A DNA stretch of 64,000 bases from the IMG/VR virus record IMGVR_UViG_3300011116_001227; one strand, written 5' to 3'. The notes below the pieces were generated by a model. The model made no database searches. It saw only the letters and a program-made list of their open reading frames with translations, and was not told where the DNA came from. Each line of letters begins with the position of its first letter. The first letter of the stretch is position 1. The DNA is from a virus. Its lineage: Duplodnaviria > Caudoviricetes. The translations under genes and the position numbers were made by a program. This document shows, one piece after another, positions 5,697 through 37,641 of the stretch.

Positions 5697-6338
5697 TCAT
5701 TCGTCATAAAAAGACTTAATAATTTTTCTTGGTCCGTCGATCGGTGGATCAAGAGTTCCGTTCTCTCTAAGATCTCTCTTATCAGCGGTTGGATTGCCTT
5801 TAGAATCCAGCTCATTACCTCTTTGCTGTTCGAACTCTGTCTGAACAGCATCAGCATCTGTGTTTGCAATATCTGTAGGACCTTTAAGCGGTGCTTTAAA
5901 CAGACCGTCGCGAGATTTATTACCAATAATCTTGATGCCATTTTTATGTTCAGGTAGACCGAATATATTTTTAGAAACCATTGCTTCGGTCACTTCATAG
6001 AAAATTTCATCGAATGAGAAAAAGTCACCAATATTCACTCGAATTCCCTTGTCGACTAAATCTCTATATTGAATAAATGCTTCAATCATAAACTGCTTGT
6101 CAATACCGAACTTGTCTATCTTGGTTGACTGTTGGAAGTTTGCATCAACAATGCATTCTATTTCTATTGGATTGTCGTAGACTTTCTTCAATGCTTCGTT
6201 ATAAACATCGTGAGTTTTTGTCTTCAACTCTGAAATAGGGTAATAATAGATTTTTTGACCAATCACATCTTTTACTATCTCTTTCGTAATGTCTGAGATA
6301 AAATTTAACTCTCTCTCTGTGATAAACAAACGAGCCAT
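5697..6338 (-). CDS. Neck/head-closure protein (T4 gp14-like)
   Basis: KIYYYP...VYNEA...KFGID...GDFF..FYEV pattern; synteny gp13-gp14-gp15. Confidence 0.6.
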   Translation of the reverse strand: MARLFITERELNFISDITKEIVKDVIGQKIYYYPISELKTKTHDVYNEALKKVYDNPIEIECIVDANFQQSTKIDKFGIDKQFMIEAFIQYRDLVDKGIRVNIGDFFSFDEIFYEVTEAMVSKNIFGLPEHKNGIKIIGNKSRDGLFKAPLKGPTDIANTDADAVQTEFEQQRGNELDSKGNPTADKRDLRENGTLDPPIDGPRKIIKSFYDE

Positions 6339-6350
6339 AAGTTATCTCCT

Positions 6351-7529
6351 TTATCCTATTACGATAGATTTTCCTGATGGCATAGGGATATACCTCAGAC
6401 TCTTGTTAAGATTTTCTGCTGTGAGAGCGTCAGTTTCTATCAGCTTGGCTCTCGTCAAGTTTGATAAAAATTCTTTTAACTGTGTAATTAGTTTGTCCTT
6501 GTCTTCTCTACCCTGCGTAACAAGTGATTCACCATTCAGCTGAAGATCAGCATTTGGAATAGGAATACTCTGAAATTTAGAGCGAATTAGACCTAATAAC
6601 TCTCTGCAAAGCGCAAGAGTATATTGACGAATCCACTGACGTCCAGGTTGTGTGATGCTTCTAAATGGAAGATTTCCATAAGGAATATTCTCTGGTCCTG
6701 AAATACCGTAGATAGAATCGTCTTTAAAGGCTGTAGGATTAAGTGGATCTTTTCTTGGCATTACTTTGCAATAAACTCTTCCCACTTGTGATTCAAGTAC
6801 TGGAATCGGGAATAGACGAAGTTTGCTTCCAATTAATTGATAACTGTATTGTGATCTTCTCACTCTGAATGCAGTTTCTAACATTCCTCTTCTTAAAACA
6901 TCTTCAAATACTGGAAGAACGTAGAACACTGTTGAGTTGATGTACGACTCATAGTTGAAGTTTGTCGCCAAGTAGTTTGTAATATTTGACGCGTTTAAAA
7001 GAAAGTGTTGTGCAGCAATTGGCTCAAAGTGAAACAATTCTACAATTTTTAACTTTCCTTTAGATCCGCTTGGAATAGTGTCGTAAATGTTTAAATTTGT
7101 TTGAGCGTCTTTTAAGTCAGCGTACAAATCGTAGTCTTGTTTGTCGCCTACGACGTCAAAATAGCCTAAAATAGGATTGTAGGAACCTCCTACGTTGGTC
7201 TCAGAAGCATACGCATCTGCCATTCTTGTTAAGAACTCCAACGTATTCCTTGTGTACTTATTTGTCAGATCTGTTGATCCTGTAGGCATTCCTAAAACGT
7301 TTGACAATTCAGACACAATTTTCATTTCATGAATATTTTTGCTATATTCACAGCATGCTTCTTCAAAACATGCCCATATCTCTTTCTTAGTCAATTCAAC
7401 GCTAAGAACATCGTCACCTAACTTTCTTTTTACAAAGTTGACCATGCTGTCAGCTTCAGACTGAAAGTCAGTATCTGAATCAAAAAAACCGAACGGTGTA
7501 GGATTCACAATGTCCGTAAAAGATGCCAT
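6351..7529 (-). CDS. Neck protein/head-tail adaptor (T4 gp13-like)
   Basis: VKRKLG..VLSVELT, WIRQYTLALCRELLG.IRSKF and LNGESL motifs of gp13-like adaptors. Confidence 0.7.
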   Translation of the reverse strand: MASFTDIVNPTPFGFFDSDTDFQSEADSMVNFVKRKLGDDVLSVELTKKEIWACFEEACCEYSKNIHEMKIVSELSNVLGMPTGSTDLTNKYTRNTLEFLTRMADAYASETNVGGSYNPILGYFDVVGDKQDYDLYADLKDAQTNLNIYDTIPSGSKGKLKIVELFHFEPIAAQHFLLNASNITNYLATNFNYESYINSTVFYVLPVFEDVLRRGMLETAFRVRRSQYSYQLIGSKLRLFPIPVLESQVGRVYCKVMPRKDPLNPTAFKDDSIYGISGPENIPYGNLPFRSITQPGRQWIRQYTLALCRELLGLIRSKFQSIPIPNADLQLNGESLVTQGREDKDKLITQLKEFLSNLTRAKLIETDALTAENLNKSLRYIPMPSGKSIVIG

Positions 7530-31129: not shown

Positions 31130-31399
31130 TCACATTTTTAATTTAGACTTAATGTATTCTTTAGAGGGTCTCCAGTCAACTTTCCAGTCTTCAAGTTTAG
31201 GATAAATTATCTTATTGGAACAAGAATCACAGCACTCAAATTTTCTAAAAGACTCTTCGTCATAGTAAGAAGTCATAATTGTCTCGCAAAATGGACAAAA
31301 AAGCGGTGGTGAAGTTGAAGGATCCTTCTCTTTAATGACATAAAATCCATCACACTCTTTAATCAACCTGTCATTAAGATACGATTTCCACTCGCTCAT
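31130..31399 (-). CDS. Small Zn-binding hypothetical protein
   Basis: CPFC...CCDSC; coupled to the sbcC stop codon. Confidence 0.6.
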   Translation of the reverse strand: MSEWKSYLNDRLIKECDGFYVIKEKDPSTSPPLFCPFCETIMTSYYDEESFRKFECCDSCSNKIIYPKLEDWKVDWRPSKEYIKSKLKM

Positions 31400-33978
31400 A
31401 CGAACACCATCTTTGAATCTTTCTCGTTCTTTGTAATCTCTAGGATATGATCAGCAACATCCTTAATTCCGTCAACATGTGTGATCACCAAAATTAATCT
31501 AAAAAACTTCTTTAAACTTGTCAGTAATCTATTGCATGATTCAACGCCAGAATCATCTAATGTTCCAAACCCTTCATCAATGATGAACATGTCTGACTTT
31601 GACATCGAAGAAACATTCACCAATGCAACTCTTAGTGCAATAGAAGCGATCGTCTTCTCCATTCCAGAGCACAATTCAATTATTCTACGAGAATCTCCAT
31701 AATTGATGTAGATCTCAGATGCATCTGATTCATCATCATTCTCCAACTCAACTGAGAAATCTACGATTCCGTGGAGGATCTTTGAAATCTCTGCATTAAT
31801 GACCGGTAGCTGTGACCTTGTTATGATCAAAGGAATTCCTTTCTTTGAGAAAGATCCTGAAATGATCTCATATGTCTTCATCGACTTTAAGATAACATCT
31901 CTAGCTGTTCTCTCTGTAGATAATTTTTCGATATCTGAGAGGAGTTTTCCTCTCTGAGTTGCCAAGTTCATCCTGATCTCATCCGATGATTTGATAAGCT
32001 TAGTTAATTCTTCTATTTTCGACCTAATAGAAACTACTTCTGTATTTTCTTCATTTTTTAAAGCTTCTTGGAGATCGACCAAACGCTGCTGCGCTGTCTT
32101 TAGAGACTCATCGATCGAGTCACAAGAAGACCTAGACTTTTCTATCTCGGTTTCTTTCTTCGAAATTTCCAATTTAATCTTTGAAGAAAGCACTGAAGCT
32201 TTCTCTAATTTATCAATCTTTAATTCGATTGATTCTTTATTTAATGTAATGATCGAGTCTTTTAGTCTTGTCAGCTTTTTTAAAGTAGATGCAATCTTTT
32301 TATTTTGAGATTCAATTTTATCTCTACTTTGATGAGCATCTTTAATAAATTTACATGTGGGATAATCATCTCCACAGGGAACTTCGTCCAGAATCTTTAG
32401 AGATTTCTGGTGTTGATTGAGGATCGATGTTTCTTTGTCGTATAGATGATTTAACTCTGAAAGAGATCTTTCAAGCTCATTTATTGAAGAAAGTCTTCTT
32501 TTTAGATCATCAATGTCATCAGAAGACTCAACTTCTTCTACAATCATTAGCTTTTTCTTCAAATCAGTAATATCTGATGATAACATTCCAATCTTTGATT
32601 TGCAGTCTTGACAAGATTTAACTAATGTGTCAACTTTTTTCTCTTGCAATTGCACGTCAGTAGGCGTGACAACTTTTACTTCTTTGTGACAAGAAAGTTC
32701 TGTTCTCAAATCAGATATTTCAGTCTGATGCTGATTAATAGAATGGACTAGTTCATCAATTTTTGATTCAATAACGTCTATAGAATCTTGTGCTTGTTTC
32801 TTTAATTCATCCCAATTTCTATCAGGATAATTTTTTAATTGAGACTTAAAAGAATTTAAGTCTTTATTTGCAAGATCTGACATTTTGTCAAAAATGTCAA
32901 GTCCTAAAAATTTTGACAAATAAGCTCTTCTTTTTGTAGATCCTTGAGAGATAAAAGAATTGATATCACCCTGCGCTGACAAAGAAGTAATTGAAAAATC
33001 TTCGTGTGTCCCAATTAAAGATCTAATAGATTTTTCAGTATCAGTTCTTAAATCTCCACACAGATCCTCAAGTTCCCCGTCTTCTTGAGCTCTAAAGAAA
33101 TTTAAAGAAGTCGTAGCATTGACTACACCTCGTTTATTCGTAGATTTGGTTGTCTGTCTTTCCGCAATATAAATTTTTCCGTTATGATCAAATATTGCTC
33201 TAGAATAACAGTGAGGTTTTCTAATATTGCAAACATGAAGATTCTTTAAGGCGCCTCTATCTGTAGTGTTAAATAGTGTATAGACCATTGTCCCTACAAT
33301 TGAAGACTTACCCGTTCTATTTGGGCCAAAGATTCCAATGATGCCATTTAACTTAGAAAAATCAATTTCATTATCTTCACCGTAGGCAAAAGTATTGTCC
33401 CACTTTAAATGCTTTAAAGACCACGTAGAACCTCTAGAAAAGTCATCTGACGAAATGACAGTCGATAAGTATTTTTTAGTCTGACCAGCTAGAGCATCCC
33501 AGTCAACTTCTGTGTTGCCGTTCTCTTTGCAGTAAGTTTGAATTAAACTTAAAATTACCTCTGGTGAGTTTAAATCTGACTTTACAATCGTAGAAGTTCC
33601 CGCTTTAATGACTTCACTTTCTGCTTTGTATTCAGATTTAAATGTTACTTCTGTGGCAGAATATTTGTTTTTTAGCGTTTCATTTAGAAAACTAATATCA
33701 TCTTGACTAAGCGAATTAGGTGATTTAATTCTAAATCTTGACTGAAGTGGGTGATTTTTAACTTCTTTTAAGAAGTCTTCTTGAGAACCTGACCATTGAA
33801 TGGTAACAAAAGGTTTTGGATTAGGGAGCTTTTTAAATGTGACATCCCAATCATTCTCATCTTTGATATCCCAAAGAAGATAACCATGGTCCAACTCCTC
33901 TGCGTAATTCTGCTGCACCGGACAACCACTGTAAGCTATCCAAGGTTTTTTTACCTTTATTTTTATCTTTTTTCCCAT
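31396..33978 (-). CDS. sbcC: SbcC/Rad50 (gp46-like) ATPase with N-terminal C-half of the SbcD/Mre11 nuclease
   Basis: N-terminal WIAYSGCPVQQNYAEE..HGYLLWDI (SbcD C-terminal motifs); then GIFGPNRTGKSS Walker A, CxxC hook CPTC, CSGMEK signature, FIIDEGFGTLD Walker B, VITH. Confidence 0.9.
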   Translation of the reverse strand: MGKKIKIKVKKPWIAYSGCPVQQNYAEELDHGYLLWDIKDENDWDVTFKKLPNPKPFVTIQWSGSQEDFLKEVKNHPLQSRFRIKSPNSLSQDDISFLNETLKNKYSATEVTFKSEYKAESEVIKAGTSTIVKSDLNSPEVILSLIQTYCKENGNTEVDWDALAGQTKKYLSTVISSDDFSRGSTWSLKHLKWDNTFAYGEDNEIDFSKLNGIIGIFGPNRTGKSSIVGTMVYTLFNTTDRGALKNLHVCNIRKPHCYSRAIFDHNGKIYIAERQTTKSTNKRGVVNATTSLNFFRAQEDGELEDLCGDLRTDTEKSIRSLIGTHEDFSITSLSAQGDINSFISQGSTKRRAYLSKFLGLDIFDKMSDLANKDLNSFKSQLKNYPDRNWDELKKQAQDSIDVIESKIDELVHSINQHQTEISDLRTELSCHKEVKVVTPTDVQLQEKKVDTLVKSCQDCKSKIGMLSSDITDLKKKLMIVEEVESSDDIDDLKRRLSSINELERSLSELNHLYDKETSILNQHQKSLKILDEVPCGDDYPTCKFIKDAHQSRDKIESQNKKIASTLKKLTRLKDSIITLNKESIELKIDKLEKASVLSSKIKLEISKKETEIEKSRSSCDSIDESLKTAQQRLVDLQEALKNEENTEVVSIRSKIEELTKLIKSSDEIRMNLATQRGKLLSDIEKLSTERTARDVILKSMKTYEIISGSFSKKGIPLIITRSQLPVINAEISKILHGIVDFSVELENDDESDASEIYINYGDSRRIIELCSGMEKTIASIALRVALVNVSSMSKSDMFIIDEGFGTLDDSGVESCNRLLTSLKKFFRLILVITHVDGIKDVADHILEITKNEKDSKMVFV

Positions 33979-34865
33979 AACTTCTTAGTCAAAACTTTTG
34001 AAAAATTTTCACTTATTATTTCTGATTCCCAAAATCTTAATAGATGTAACCTTGCATCTATTGCAAGCTGATTTTTTATGTTATCATTAACAAAATTGTA
34101 CTCTTGGATGTGATCTTTTTCTTTGTATAGAGACGGATTTGCATGCCAATAATCACCATCACATTCAATCAATATTTTCATCTCAGGAATATAAAAATCA
34201 AATTCTCTCTTTACTAAATCTAATTCAAGAGTGTAGGGATGAACAAATTGTATTTGTAAAGAAGTTAATAACTCATATACTATTTTTTCTATTCTCGTGT
34301 CTCTTTTAGGAATAGCTTCTTTTGCAATCTGCTGACTTGTTTTTCCGTATAACTCAATATTCGTTTTTTCACATTTTTTACGAACATCCCTGTTTGACCA
34401 CGGATGTTTAAATCCATATTTTTCTTCGCACGTTTTCTTACGTTTTTCTTTACTAAACTCAAGTTGTCCTAGAGAACAACCTGTCTCTTTTTTTCTTCTA
34501 TCAGAAACTTGTTTCATTAATTCTGAATGATTAATGACGTTTTCCTCTTTACTCCAATATATTTTTTGAGATTCTCTTACAAGGCTTCTTGTTTCTTCTG
34601 ATGGAGAAATTCCGTACATCGGATTATTTTCACCAATGTATGTTATTTTTTGATGATCATCTTTACACGATCTTGAACAATATCTCTTATTTTTTTCGGA
34701 TTTCCAATCCTTACAAAAAACAAATTCTTCTTGACAATTTTCACATTTCTTTTTTTCTCTAGCTGCCTTAGTATTCTGCTTTGCTACACCTACAGCTTGA
34801 CATTTTCTACTACAATAACTCTTTTGTTTTGCAAGTTGTTCATCGCAGTTATTACATTTTTTCAT
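33963..34865 (-). mobile_element. Free-standing homing endonuclease (Zn-finger repeats, NUMOD3-like, DUF559/Vsr-like nuclease)
   Basis: CNNC...YCSRKC and CENC...YCSRSC; NPMYG..SEET; KTCEEKYG/KTNIELYG repeats; FDFYIP..KILIECDGDYWH...LLRFWES. Confidence 0.85.
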
Positions 34866-34870
34866 TGTAA

Positions 34871-34877
34871 TAACTAT
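34871..34877 (-). promoter_or_regulatory. Putative late-promoter motif in front of the endonuclease that splits sbcD
   Basis: Minus strand ATAGTTA 5 nt upstream of the ATG at 34865. Confidence 0.4.
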
Positions 34878-34902
34878 ACCTGCTCAACAAAATCTTGCTG
34901 AA

Positions 34903-35553
34903 TTATTCAATGATGGTACATCCAGGATATTTGTATAAATCATCTTCATCTATCTCTATTTCTACTTCTCTAAAATCAAGATACTGAGTCTTGTGAATGT
35001 CACCGAGAAACACATAAGGATAATCTTTAAAAAACTCAACCTTCAACTGTGCTTCATCTAGTTCCCATCCAGATTCAGTAACTGCACCGTGAACAGGACC
35101 ATGATAACATGCAATGTTGATCTTACCAGGTTCTGGTTTGACATTCTTCCACCCCTCTTCGTCAAAGAGTGAATAAACACACCAATTAAATCCAGGTTGA
35201 AACTCATAAACGCCGCTCTTCTTATAGAGATGAACCTTGGGATTATTTAATGCTGTTACGATAGGAGACACGGCATCTTGTCTGGACAGATTAGTCAAAT
35301 TGCCATCATGATTTCCTAAAGTTAAATGAACTGGTGCTACTTCAGCCATTGCTTCGAGCCACCAAGTTAATTGGTCAATATACTCGGGTGAGATGCCAGT
35401 TGTTTTGGTATGGAAAATGTCGCCACCGACAAAGATATGATCGACTTTATTCTTCTTGCAATCTTTTACAAATGCTGTAAAAACTTCTCGATATTCATCG
35501 TGACGACTTAAACCACGCCAATGTATGTCGGCAGTATGTGCAATCTTTAGCAT
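34903..35553 (-). CDS. sbcD: SbcD/Mre11 (gp47-like) nuclease, N-terminal fragment
   Basis: HTADIH, GGDIFH, LGNHD, CYHG, LGDIHK metallophosphoesterase motifs; ends before the AYSG motif, which lies in the next-but-one ORF. Confidence 0.9.
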   Translation of the reverse strand: MLKIAHTADIHWRGLSRHDEYREVFTAFVKDCKKNKVDHIFVGGDIFHTKTTGISPEYIDQLTWWLEAMAEVAPVHLTLGNHDGNLTNLSRQDAVSPIVTALNNPKVHLYKKSGVYEFQPGFNWCVYSLFDEEGWKNVKPEPGKINIACYHGPVHGAVTESGWELDEAQLKVEFFKDYPYVFLGDIHKTQYLDFREVEIEIDEDDLYKYPGCTIIE

Positions 35554-35614
35554 CTAAGTTATAAGCATACAATGCTTTTATTGTCATGTTTAAATCTAGT
35601 CAATATAAACATTG

Positions 35615-36589
35615 CTAAAATACAAAGCTAGACGAAGTTACTTTTTCGAGTCTATTTGAAAATAAGTCGACCCATTCCATGGGTTTTGCATTTATAAGTG
35701 CATCTTCAAATTGTTTTTTCGTCATTGCTCCTGGATCTCCCCACGGTCTTACATCTACAACGATTACATCAACGTTGTATTCTTTCAATTTTTTAACGAT
35801 TTTTGGAGTTTTCTTGTTCCACATATCACCGTCAAGAGCGAGAGCGACAGGTGTTTGATGGATTAAAATTTTATTGAAGAGTTCGTGTCTTTCGTCTAGA
35901 TCAGAACCAAGAAGAGCTGTTGAATTTTCAGTACATTTAACTAAATCAAATGGACCTTCACATAAAACAAGTCTTTTAGACCAGTCGATGTTGATCTCAT
36001 TAAAAACAATTGGATTTTTATCTACATCAGGATTGTCATACTTCGGTCTTCGTGTAGGATCAATAGCTCGAGCAGCAAAATAGTTTAAATGTCCTCGATT
36101 ATTAAAAGAGGGCATTATAATTCTTCGCTTCCATCGAGTCTCATTTGACAAACCAAACTTGAAGTACCAAGCATCCTTCTCGGTTAGACCTCGACTTTCA
36201 ACGTAGTTCCAAGCTGCTTTAACATCCGGATCTGAAGTACTTGAAAGTGTCAGTAGACAAAAATCTTTTGGCAGTTCTATCTTCTTTTCTGCTTCAACTT
36301 CTGCAGTGATTATTTTAGAATCACCTAATCCAAAGAGTTCTTTGTAAGAACTTAACTGTGAATTTGTTCCATATTTTCTGATAAGAGGAGCGAGGCTTCT
36401 AGCCTTCCATCCGCAAGTCCAGCAATGATTAGCATCATCAGACGTTCTAATTGCAAGTTTCTTTTTGCTGGCATCTGAAGGAGAACAAATTGGACAGCGA
36501 ACGTCAAAATTCTTACCGTTTCCAGAAAGTCGACCTCTTCCAAAGATCGATTCATAAAAATTGATTTTATCAGTCAGCGAAAAAACCAC
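35615..36589 (-). CDS. DNA primase (Zn finger plus TOPRIM)
   Basis: CPIC...HCWTCG zinc finger; RIIMPS, YFAAR, LCEGPFD, ALDGD TOPRIM motifs. Confidence 0.88.
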   Translation of the reverse strand: MVFSLTDKINFYESIFGRGRLSGNGKNFDVRCPICSPSDASKKKLAIRTSDDANHCWTCGWKARSLAPLIRKYGTNSQLSSYKELFGLGDSKIITAEVEAEKKIELPKDFCLLTLSSTSDPDVKAAWNYVESRGLTEKDAWYFKFGLSNETRWKRRIIMPSFNNRGHLNYFAARAIDPTRRPKYDNPDVDKNPIVFNEINIDWSKRLVLCEGPFDLVKCTENSTALLGSDLDERHELFNKILIHQTPVALALDGDMWNKKTPKIVKKLKEYNVDVIVVDVRPWGDPGAMTKKQFEDALINAKPMEWVDLFSNRLEKVTSSSFVF

Positions 36590-37221: not shown

Positions 37222-37641
37222 TTAAATAAGACCCATATTCTTTAATTCAATTTCTGTCAATATTACGTAAGTGGCTCCGAATGTTTCGCACCAGGCTTGA
37301 GCAGCTGTAGTCTTCTTCTTCACTATAGCTTGCTCAAGCTTTCTTTTTTGTTTGATCTCTATTACTTTTTTAGATCCATCAGAAAATTCAACATAAAAAT
37401 CCGGAAAGTATCTTCGTATTTTTTTAGTCTTTTGATTAGAGACATATTCTATCACTAATTTTTCATAAGTCCAAGAAGAGACGTCAGGATTCTCGTCTAG
37501 ATGAATCATGTATTTCTGTTCCCAGCCAGATCTAAAATTGTATTGAATGCCAGACTTTGTCGAAGAATACGTGCCTCTATGATATCGACTGCGTTTCTTC
37601 TTTTTGCGTGATTTTTTTGGCATACAAAATTTAGCTGTCAA
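37222..37641 (-). CDS. Head completion nuclease (T4 gp4-like, TnsA N-terminal fold)
   Basis: RSGWE, YEKLVIEY, RRYFPDFYV, IEIK, AAQAWC. Confidence 0.8.
   Translation of the reverse strand: MTAKFCMPKKSRKKKKRSRYHRGTYSSTKSGIQYNFRSGWEQKYMIHLDENPDVSSWTYEKLVIEYVSNQKTKKIRRYFPDFYVEFSDGSKKVIEIKQKRKLEQAIVKKKTTAAQAWCETFGATYVILTEIELKNMGLI

Follow-up and report, generated by a model that had tools for sequence, protein, structure and literature searches.

Phage genes that are broken in two by a free-standing endonuclease gene have precedents, and the closest of them was published by Dassa et al. in 2009 (Nucleic Acids Res 37:2560, PMC2677866), an intein-less, fractured SbcD-like gene in freshwater data from Lake Gatun in the Global Ocean Sampling (GOS) collection. 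The locus described here occupies 31396-35553 of IMGVR_UViG_3300011116_001227, a 64,000-nucleotide stretch from a freshwater phage (Caudoviricetes) whose full length is called the window below, and it consists of a single-chain Mre11-Rad50 gene that is split by the gene for a Vsr-like endonuclease. Going by the published description, the Lake Gatun locus resembles the window in that the N- and the C-terminal half are encoded by separate open reading frames (ORFs), that these flank a free-standing Vsr-like endonuclease ORF, and that no intein is present. Its break is marked by additional residues, about 25 of them C-terminal and 9 N-terminal, and the 3′ end of its endonuclease gene overlaps the downstream start as in the window. 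The arrangement was already in print in 2009, and the window is a well-documented example of it that offers no new mechanism. However, Dassa et al. had one partial locus, gave no evidence on mobility, decay, selection, or tail structure, and did not mention the Mre11-Rad50 fusion. What is added here is a near-isogenic before-and-after pair, nested co-conversion tracts, a full decay series, a signal of selection on the tails, and a predicted register of charged and hydrophobic residues. The fractured genes with split inteins in the 2009 study have the same layout, and their intein halves also pair through charge-complementary antiparallel strands. In contrast to those split inteins, which comprise at least 130 amino acids with splicing motifs, the tails in the window total about 31 amino acids and contain no such motifs, so the two products would stay non-covalent. 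A 5′ hairpin was reported for 15 of the 16 fractured-gene endonucleases (Dassa 2009, PMC2677866). The window has the features of this type, namely a 3′ overlap of 16 nucleotides and a hairpin that encloses the endonuclease start codon (the second of two in the spacer; RNA folding, z = -2.2, a modest value). Judged from sequence, the locus belongs to the intein-less variant of the Dassa fractured genes and lacks split-intein halves, since no intein match was obtained, tail position 1 is neither Cys nor Ser, and the leader does not end in His-Asn.

Charged tails at such a break are familiar from nrdA-a, mobE, and nrdA-b of Aeromonas phage Aeh1, where, as in the window, an essential enzyme is split by a free-standing endonuclease with neither RNA nor protein splicing, and where tails of opposite charge that intact homologues lack are found at the break. 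The oppositely charged tails are essential for the activity of the mobE-split Aeh1 NrdA, and the endonuclease was proposed to have brought them along (Crona et al. 2011, PMC3045599, citing Friedrich et al. 2007). Aeh1 differs in its host gene (ribonucleotide reductase), in its HNH endonuclease, and in the direction of charge, its N-fragment tail being basic and its C-fragment tail acidic, the reverse of the window. It is also a single known phage, whereas the group to which the window belongs offers many alleles with gain, spread, and decay, and a tail function that is predicted only. The mobA-split topoisomerase genes 39 and 60 of phage T4 likewise carry tail-like charged extensions (Crona et al., PMC3045599), but host gene and endonuclease are different ones and gene 60 also has a translational bypass. 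Vsr-like EDxHD endonucleases were characterised by Taylor et al. (2011, PMC3239194). I-Bth0305I has the same C-terminal nuclease fold and the same invariant Asp, His, and Asp as the window endonuclease, but is encoded by an intron in recA and has NUMOD2 and helix-turn-helix N-terminal modules, whereas the window protein is free-standing, has Cys-rich repeats and a weak NUMOD3 match, and is predicted to cleave DNA.

In the window, three ORFs run head to tail on the minus strand, placed as in an earlier note on this DNA. The features of the locus are as follows.

34903..35553, minus strand: N-fragment gene, 216 amino acids; Mre11/SbcD phosphoesterase core with metal-ligand motifs I-V, assigned from invariant columns and fold match.
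34906..34968, minus strand: acidic C-terminal tail E196-E216 (EVEIEIDEDDLYKYPGCTIIE), which nearly all intact alleles lack; predicted strand, short helix, and strand.
34866..34902, minus strand: 37-nucleotide spacer that, with the first endonuclease codons, folds into two hairpins.
33963..34865, minus strand: free-standing homing-endonuclease gene, 300 amino acids; Cys-rich N-terminal repeats, a NUMOD3-like motif, and a C-terminal Vsr-like (EDxHD/DUF559) nuclease domain.
33981..33986, minus strand: AAGAAG, the likely ribosome-binding site of the C-fragment, inside the 3′ end of the endonuclease gene.
33946..33978, minus strand: basic N-terminal leader M1-K11 (MGKKIKIKVKK), which intact alleles lack; predicted β-strand that pairs with the acidic tail.
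33409..33945, minus strand: C-fragment residues 12-190; final strands of the Mre11 phosphoesterase core (KPWIAYSG..QQNYAEE), capping domain, and linker.
31396..33408, minus strand: C-fragment residues 191-860; Rad50/SbcC-like ATPase with Walker A GPNRTGKS, coiled coil, and SbcC Walker B region.
33850..35290, minus strand: recombination-imported tract, relative to the near-isogenic intact locus L015.

Every metal-ligand motif sits in the N-fragment (D9/H11, D45, N81/H82, H151, and GDIH at 184-187), and D9, H11, D45, N81, H82, H151, D185, and H187 are invariant across 46 sequences. This fragment matches PF00149 (Metallophos, 2e-15) in Pfam and the SbcD-like phrog_100 in PHROGs, and its C-terminus reads ...GDIHKTQYLDFREVEIEIDEDDLYKYPGCTIIE before the stop codon. 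The tail, with 8 acidic residues and 1 basic residue, starts where the alignment to L015 ends. The C-fragment ORF (31396..33978, minus strand, 860 amino acids) opens with MGKKIKIKVKKPWIAYSGCPVQQNY, 6 Lys being contained in the leader, and fuses the Mre11 C-terminal part in cis to its Rad50/SbcC partner in one polypeptide (phrog_77, SbcC-like, 1.5e-59 in PHROGs; SMC_N and SbcC_Walker_B both weak in Pfam). The two host ORFs share one reading frame and are 924 nucleotides apart. The three-ORF layout with its 37-nucleotide spacer, 16-nucleotide overlap, and lack of room for a group I intron, which the earlier note had claimed, is confirmed by the ORF coordinates and an Rfam scan, and the residue counts bear out its acidic tail and basic leader. 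Its view of a split SbcD/Mre11 nuclease holds; that the intact gene is a fused Mre11-Rad50 and not SbcD alone it had stated only in passing.

The N-fragment was used as the query against IMG/VR and yielded 80 related loci on viral contigs. One uninterrupted ORF of about 1052 amino acids is present in about 60 of these, and the usual gene in these freshwater phages is therefore a single-chain Mre11-Rad50; the split architecture is present in 12 of the 80. In an alignment of the roughly 60 intact homologues, the alleles contain GDIHQxQYLGYR and KPWIxYPGxPxQQNYAEE, in this order, with 0-9 variable residues between the two. Split alleles have about 21 acidic residues and a stop after R[ED], and a new Met with about 10 basic residues ahead of KPW; tail and leader are absent from nearly all of the intact homologues. 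An AlphaFold2 (AF2) model of the split allele L025, translated across its single stop, with a predicted local distance difference test (pLDDT) value of 83.8, contains the nuclease and capping-domain fold of Mre11/SbcD and matches 3qg5, 7yzo, 7dog, and 4m0v by Foldseek (E 1e-13 to 1e-12); the break falls in the turn of the β-hairpin after motif V. The comparison with uninterrupted homologues that the earlier note had proposed puts the insertion in the variable 0-9-residue hairpin loop and finds the tails to be extra. Its claim that the tails are additions stands in that the roughly 60 intact homologues lack them; they are not new in this genome, however, but old, and travel with the endonuclease as one cassette. 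A blastn search with the 5-kb region found no match among 50,697 phage records, and a literature search on single-chain phage Mre11-Rad50 found nothing relevant. The best named relative is Microcystis phage Mel-JY01, at the protein level only and with 38% identity. Mel-JY01 (PP395634.1; L001:3953-7153) has an intact single-chain Mre11-Rad50 of about 1066 amino acids that is annotated merely as 'AAA domain containing protein', and, like the window, a primase gene upstream of it.

Acquisition of the cassette can be followed in a near-isogenic pair. The intact L015 is 98-99% identical to the window across 6.3 kb upstream and 1 kb downstream, window 41553-34967 aligning without gaps to L015 1-6587 and window 33952-32737 aligning to L015 6603-7818, and 1014 nucleotides in the window stand in place of 15 in L015. 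Mismatches between the two, at a background of 0-7 per 100 nucleotides, rise to 17-24 per 100 nucleotides in 35290-34967, and 25 fall within 33950-33850. The imported tract of about 1.4 kb comprises the tail, endonuclease gene, and leader, flanked by roughly 300 nucleotides of N-domain sequence of the L009 type on one side and by about 100 nucleotides of downstream sequence on the other. The intact L009 allele matches window 35300-35000 at 95-100% identity; about 30 nucleotides ahead of the tail codons, the sequence changes from L009-type to a version common to all split alleles, and the 3′ crossover lies about 100-130 nucleotides into the C-fragment gene. This nesting of co-conversion tracts records entry of the cassette into an L009-type allele first, followed by entry of the cassette with about 300 nucleotides of L009 flank into an L015-type genome. 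Both crossovers adjoin the most conserved coding motifs, LGDIH and QQNYAEE, which may serve as homology arms between diverged phages. One observation on the intact partner is that L015 (IMGVR_UViG_3300008055_000063, 6001-6834) has a nonsense codon at residue 278 (RFRIK-stop-PNSL, where the window has RFRIKSPNSL), which may be a real pseudogene mutation or a sequencing error; L038 likewise stops early, after 380 amino acids.

The cassette has also moved between diverged genomes. The endonuclease gene is 91-94% identical to the copies in L005 and L006, genomes that are otherwise only about 70% identical to the window, and in a lake sample the cassette is found in yet another backbone. Among close split alleles, the proportion of synonymous differences (pS) in tail and leader codons is 0.13-0.38 versus 0.65-0.86 for the N-core; values of pS and its nonsynonymous counterpart (pN) for the N-core from indel-containing pairs are unreliable and were not used. 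In a tree of the backbone from which the junction columns were excluded, the 12 split rows require at least 8 changes of the split state. Both presence/absence polymorphism and co-conversion of flanks are therefore seen for the endonuclease. The Rad50 part has a second recombination patch at its 3′ end (window 31400-31830), where identity to L012 is 95-97% on backbones that are about 70% identical; no endonuclease is visible next to it.

The endonuclease ORF falls in the homing endonuclease class of PHROGs, and Vsr, NUMOD3, and DUF7487 match it weakly in Pfam, Vsr below its gathering score. For its AF2 model (pLDDT 90.3), the best structural matches by Foldseek are Vsr (1cw0, E 2e-4) and the catalytic domain of I-Bth0305I (3r3p, template modelling score 0.75 by target, E 1e-3). 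D223, H241, and D261 are invariant in 46 endonuclease homologues, and D223 and H241 align with D51 and H69 of Vsr. These structural matches and invariant residues support the Vsr/DUF559-type assignment made in the earlier note, and the protein is probably a Vsr-like (EDxHD-type) homing endonuclease with predicted site-specific cleavage. Homologues at 40-46% identity (P0004, P0005, and P0012) occupy the same site in more distant phages and are flanked by tails of the same pattern, x[IL]x[IV]DExxLxx[YH]Pxxx[IV][IV]E and M[GAS]KK[ILFY][KR]I[KRN]x[KRN][KR]P. Because homologues this distant sit at the same site with tails of the same style, the association of endonuclease and tails is old.

Other split alleles record the loss of the endonuclease. 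It is intact in L005 and L006, reduced to a 44-amino-acid in-frame remnant in L002 and L003, and represented only by 5′ and/or 3′ scraps in L004, L007, and L025. No remnant is present in L047, L058, and L059, with spacers of 12, -1, and 1 nucleotides, and in L055 (6654-6962), a GC-rich split allele, an unrelated 103-amino-acid ORF that has no Pfam match occupies the gap in place of the Vsr-like endonuclease. The 3′ end of the endonuclease gene that holds AAGAAG is the part kept by alleles that have lost the endonuclease: L002, L004, and L007 retain about the last 35 nucleotides, with AAGAAG and the C-fragment ATG (...GACTAA[G/T]AAGTTATG). Three public samples contain, beside the endonuclease-bearing allele, a deletion allele in which 877 nucleotides are skipped. 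Tail and leader codons compared with those of the endonuclease-free L047 and L058 give pN of 0.11-0.22 with saturated pS and pN/pS of 0.15-0.2, which indicates purifying selection on the tails, also after endonuclease loss.

Complex prediction was performed with the N-fragment and C-fragment residues 1-190, using family alignments. The complex reaches an ipSAE of 0.90, the best control 0.00; at least 92% of contacts are common to the runs and partner pLDDT is at least 72. Of 80 solved complexes, 58 reach the same mark, as do 2 out of 110 mismatched pairs; these counts apply roughly, since custom alignments were used here. The confident interface is predicted to take in N residues 178-216 and C residues 2-21, and its informative part is the tail (N 195-216) with the leader (C 2-13). 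C residues 13-21 and 31-44 are packed on N residues 1-11 and 178-194 in the prediction. The best-scored pairs, 194:12, 193:13, 192:14, and 191:15, give an antiparallel register of i + j = 206, and by extrapolation of this register one face would carry the pairs E196:K10, E198:K8, E200:K6, and D202:K4, the opposite face the pairs V197:V9, I199:I7, and I201:I5. In the AF2 model of L025, which is independent of the complex prediction, 13-residue strands lie at 188-200 and 233-245 in the same register, next to a short helix at 201-206 and a return strand at 211-216, with pLDDT of 84-93 for the ribbon strands (blocks 181-200 and 231-250), 84 for the helix block, and 69 for the return-strand block. 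The tails are thus predicted to extend the native hairpin into a small three-stranded clasp. The earlier note had suggested that the halves reassemble in trans through an ionic β-zipper of Glu/Asp and Lys; the predicted complex, with tail and leader in confident contact, favors such reassembly in silico, and the modeled register matches the zipper, with an additional Val/Ile face. Its alternative, that the two extensions are the halves of an ancestral β-hairpin, does not hold, as they instead lengthen an existing hairpin.

The reading that we consider very probable is that of an Mre11-Rad50 gene in pieces, in which an endonuclease cassette splits the gene and the halves reassemble non-covalently. 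All of the computational tests are in agreement with it. The cassette is inserted in the β-hairpin turn between the GDIH motif and the KPW..YPG..QQNY strand. In gene direction it consists of the codons for the 21-residue acidic tail and a stop, the spacer with a hairpin over the endonuclease start, and the Vsr-like endonuclease gene, inside whose 3′ end lie a putative ribosome-binding site, a start codon, and the codons for the basic leader of about 10 residues. During co-infection, the endonuclease presumably cuts intact alleles. Repair off the cassette-bearing genome would then copy the whole cassette with short flanks and turn a one-piece gene into a two-piece gene in a single step, a pattern directly visible in the comparative data. 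Both products would be translated separately and reassemble non-covalently, the C-fragment strands completing the phosphoesterase sandwich and tail and leader forming an antiparallel ribbon that is predicted to carry Glu/Asp-Lys and Ile/Val ladders on its opposite faces and to be capped by the return strand of the tail. Later the endonuclease gene is deleted in many lineages, while the split and the tails are maintained by purifying selection. Whether tail, endonuclease, and leader amount to a self-contained mobile element with its own protein-level antidote, a portable split clasp, is about an even call.

Other histories can be set against this scheme. The split might predate the endonuclease, with two adjacent tailed genes present first and an endonuclease that settled later in the intergenic gap and was not the cause of the fracture. 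Many T4 endonucleases sit in intergenic gaps, and the remnant-free L047, L058, and L059 and the different ORF of L055 would fit such a history, L055, L058, and L059 forming an all-split clade. We nevertheless regard it as quite improbable for the locus. Endonucleases as distant as 40% identity are found at exactly this site with matching tails, several endonuclease-free alleles still contain endonuclease scraps, the tail, endonuclease, and leader entered the window together in one tract, and the C-fragment start site falls inside the 3′ end of the endonuclease gene. Split homologues without an endonuclease, which the earlier note had named as a reason to give up the idea, do exist, but the idea stands since several of them keep endonuclease remnants. 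A second doubt concerns the tails, which may not be an assembly clasp: the halves may join through the phosphoesterase fold alone, leaving the tails as tolerated scars or with a role in dimerisation, solubility, or regulation. Most of the roughly 200 predicted contacts are indeed core contacts, such as N 1-11 with C 33-38, and the tails of Aeh1 are dispensable for heterodimer formation (Crona et al., PMC3045599). On the other side, the tail pattern is kept across lineages down to about 50% core identity, with purifying selection after endonuclease loss, and the prediction places tail and leader in confident contact with each other, their charged and hydrophobic residues in complementary register. 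This doubt about the tails is unlikely to be right. Several points do weigh against the gene-in-pieces scheme. For the four alleles with no endonuclease remnant (L047, L058, L059, and L055), the split may predate the endonuclease. The Glu-Lys register is extrapolated from the best-scored contacts and strand boundaries and not from coordinates. Two halves of a known fold would in any case be expected to score high as a complex, and the score may reflect memorised structures and does not imply a need for the tails. In Aeh1 NrdA, the tails are needed only for higher-order assembly and are dispensable for association of the halves. Cutting of the intact allele by the endonuclease is putative, and no RNA run is among the public runs that contain the stretch.

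There is a very slim chance that one polypeptide or mRNA is restored by splicing or recoding, be it through a group I intron, a degenerate split intein, stop read-through, or ribosomal bypassing. The N- and C-fragments are in the same frame in the window, and in the relative L086 a true split intein with an endonuclease fractures the Rad50 part. However, the endonuclease ORF fills the gap in another frame with stops in the host frame, and the tails have only 21 and 10 amino acids. A group I intron is rejected, as an Rfam E-value scan of 33000-36000 returned no intron and only a chance match to a small nucleolar RNA, and just 37 nucleotides are non-coding. An intein is rejected on the absence of a Pfam intein match, a tail without N-terminal Cys or Ser, a leader without His-Asn, and the small size. 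Read-through and bypassing are rejected on the evidence of L002, L007, L058, and L059, in which the two split ORFs differ in frame and each has its own start. The invasion without splicing that had been proposed for this locus agrees with the comparative data, in which the cassette enters intact alleles and neither intron nor intein is found. Hardly any credence can be given to the notion that the split gene is a pseudogene in decay or an artefact of assembly: assemblies do contain broken copies, such as the near-isogenic intact L015 with its nonsense codon, but both ORFs in the window are intact, all catalytic motifs are present, and pN/pS is well below 1. The assembly error considered in the earlier note is ruled out by 12 of 80 contigs with the same architecture and at least three independent freshwater studies in which the stretch is found.

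Other members of this gene family have been invaded in different ways. In L072 (6001-10290), the Mre11-Rad50 homologue has 1429 amino acids and a LAGLIDADG homing-endonuclease domain near residues 627-710, and this insert is probably a full intein. A second kind of fracture is found in L086 (3816-7823), inside the Rad50 Walker A. There the first ORF ends in ...ASGK and a 29-amino-acid, Cys-initiated N-intein piece, a 422-amino-acid ORF with no Pfam match follows, and the third ORF opens with a C-intein of about 125 amino acids ending in ...SHN/S (PF14890, 7e-6), an arrangement that resembles a split intein of atypical form, its N-part being very short. With three kinds of invader, the phage Mre11-Rad50 gene family is a hotspot. 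An intact allele of a distant clade, L076 (6001-9237), has NEIIEIDEDDLP in the hairpin loop where sister alleles have ITRD. This loop is the acidic clasp strand without the break, its DNA being only about 70% like the tail codons of the window, and the allele may represent a split gene that was healed by re-fusion, or else a precursor. Elsewhere in the window, at 37222-37641 (minus strand), a small TnsA-like endonuclease ORF (PF08722, 1.9e-16) lies between a RuvC-like resolvase gene and a large structural gene. A longer NUMOD3 and TnsA-like version is found at the same place in L084, and the ORF may be another free-standing mobile nuclease gene.

Natural before-and-after alleles show how a selfish endonuclease can break the gene of an essential enzyme without killing the phage, the inserted DNA supplying a stop codon, a start codon, a ribosome-binding site, and two complementary peptide ends. 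The range of alleles, from intact through freshly invaded and endonuclease decayed to endonuclease gone, makes the idea of Crona et al. that tails come in with the endonuclease testable, and a natural split-protein clasp of about 31 amino acids could be tried in protein engineering. If the portable clasp is real, it would be a third kind of self-neutralising invader next to introns and inteins, and a single homing event would be enough to leave a previously intact essential gene in two pieces that still work. Outlasting the endonuclease, the clasp would then make the fission permanent. The case also documents how a gene fission becomes fixed once the parasite behind it has been lost.

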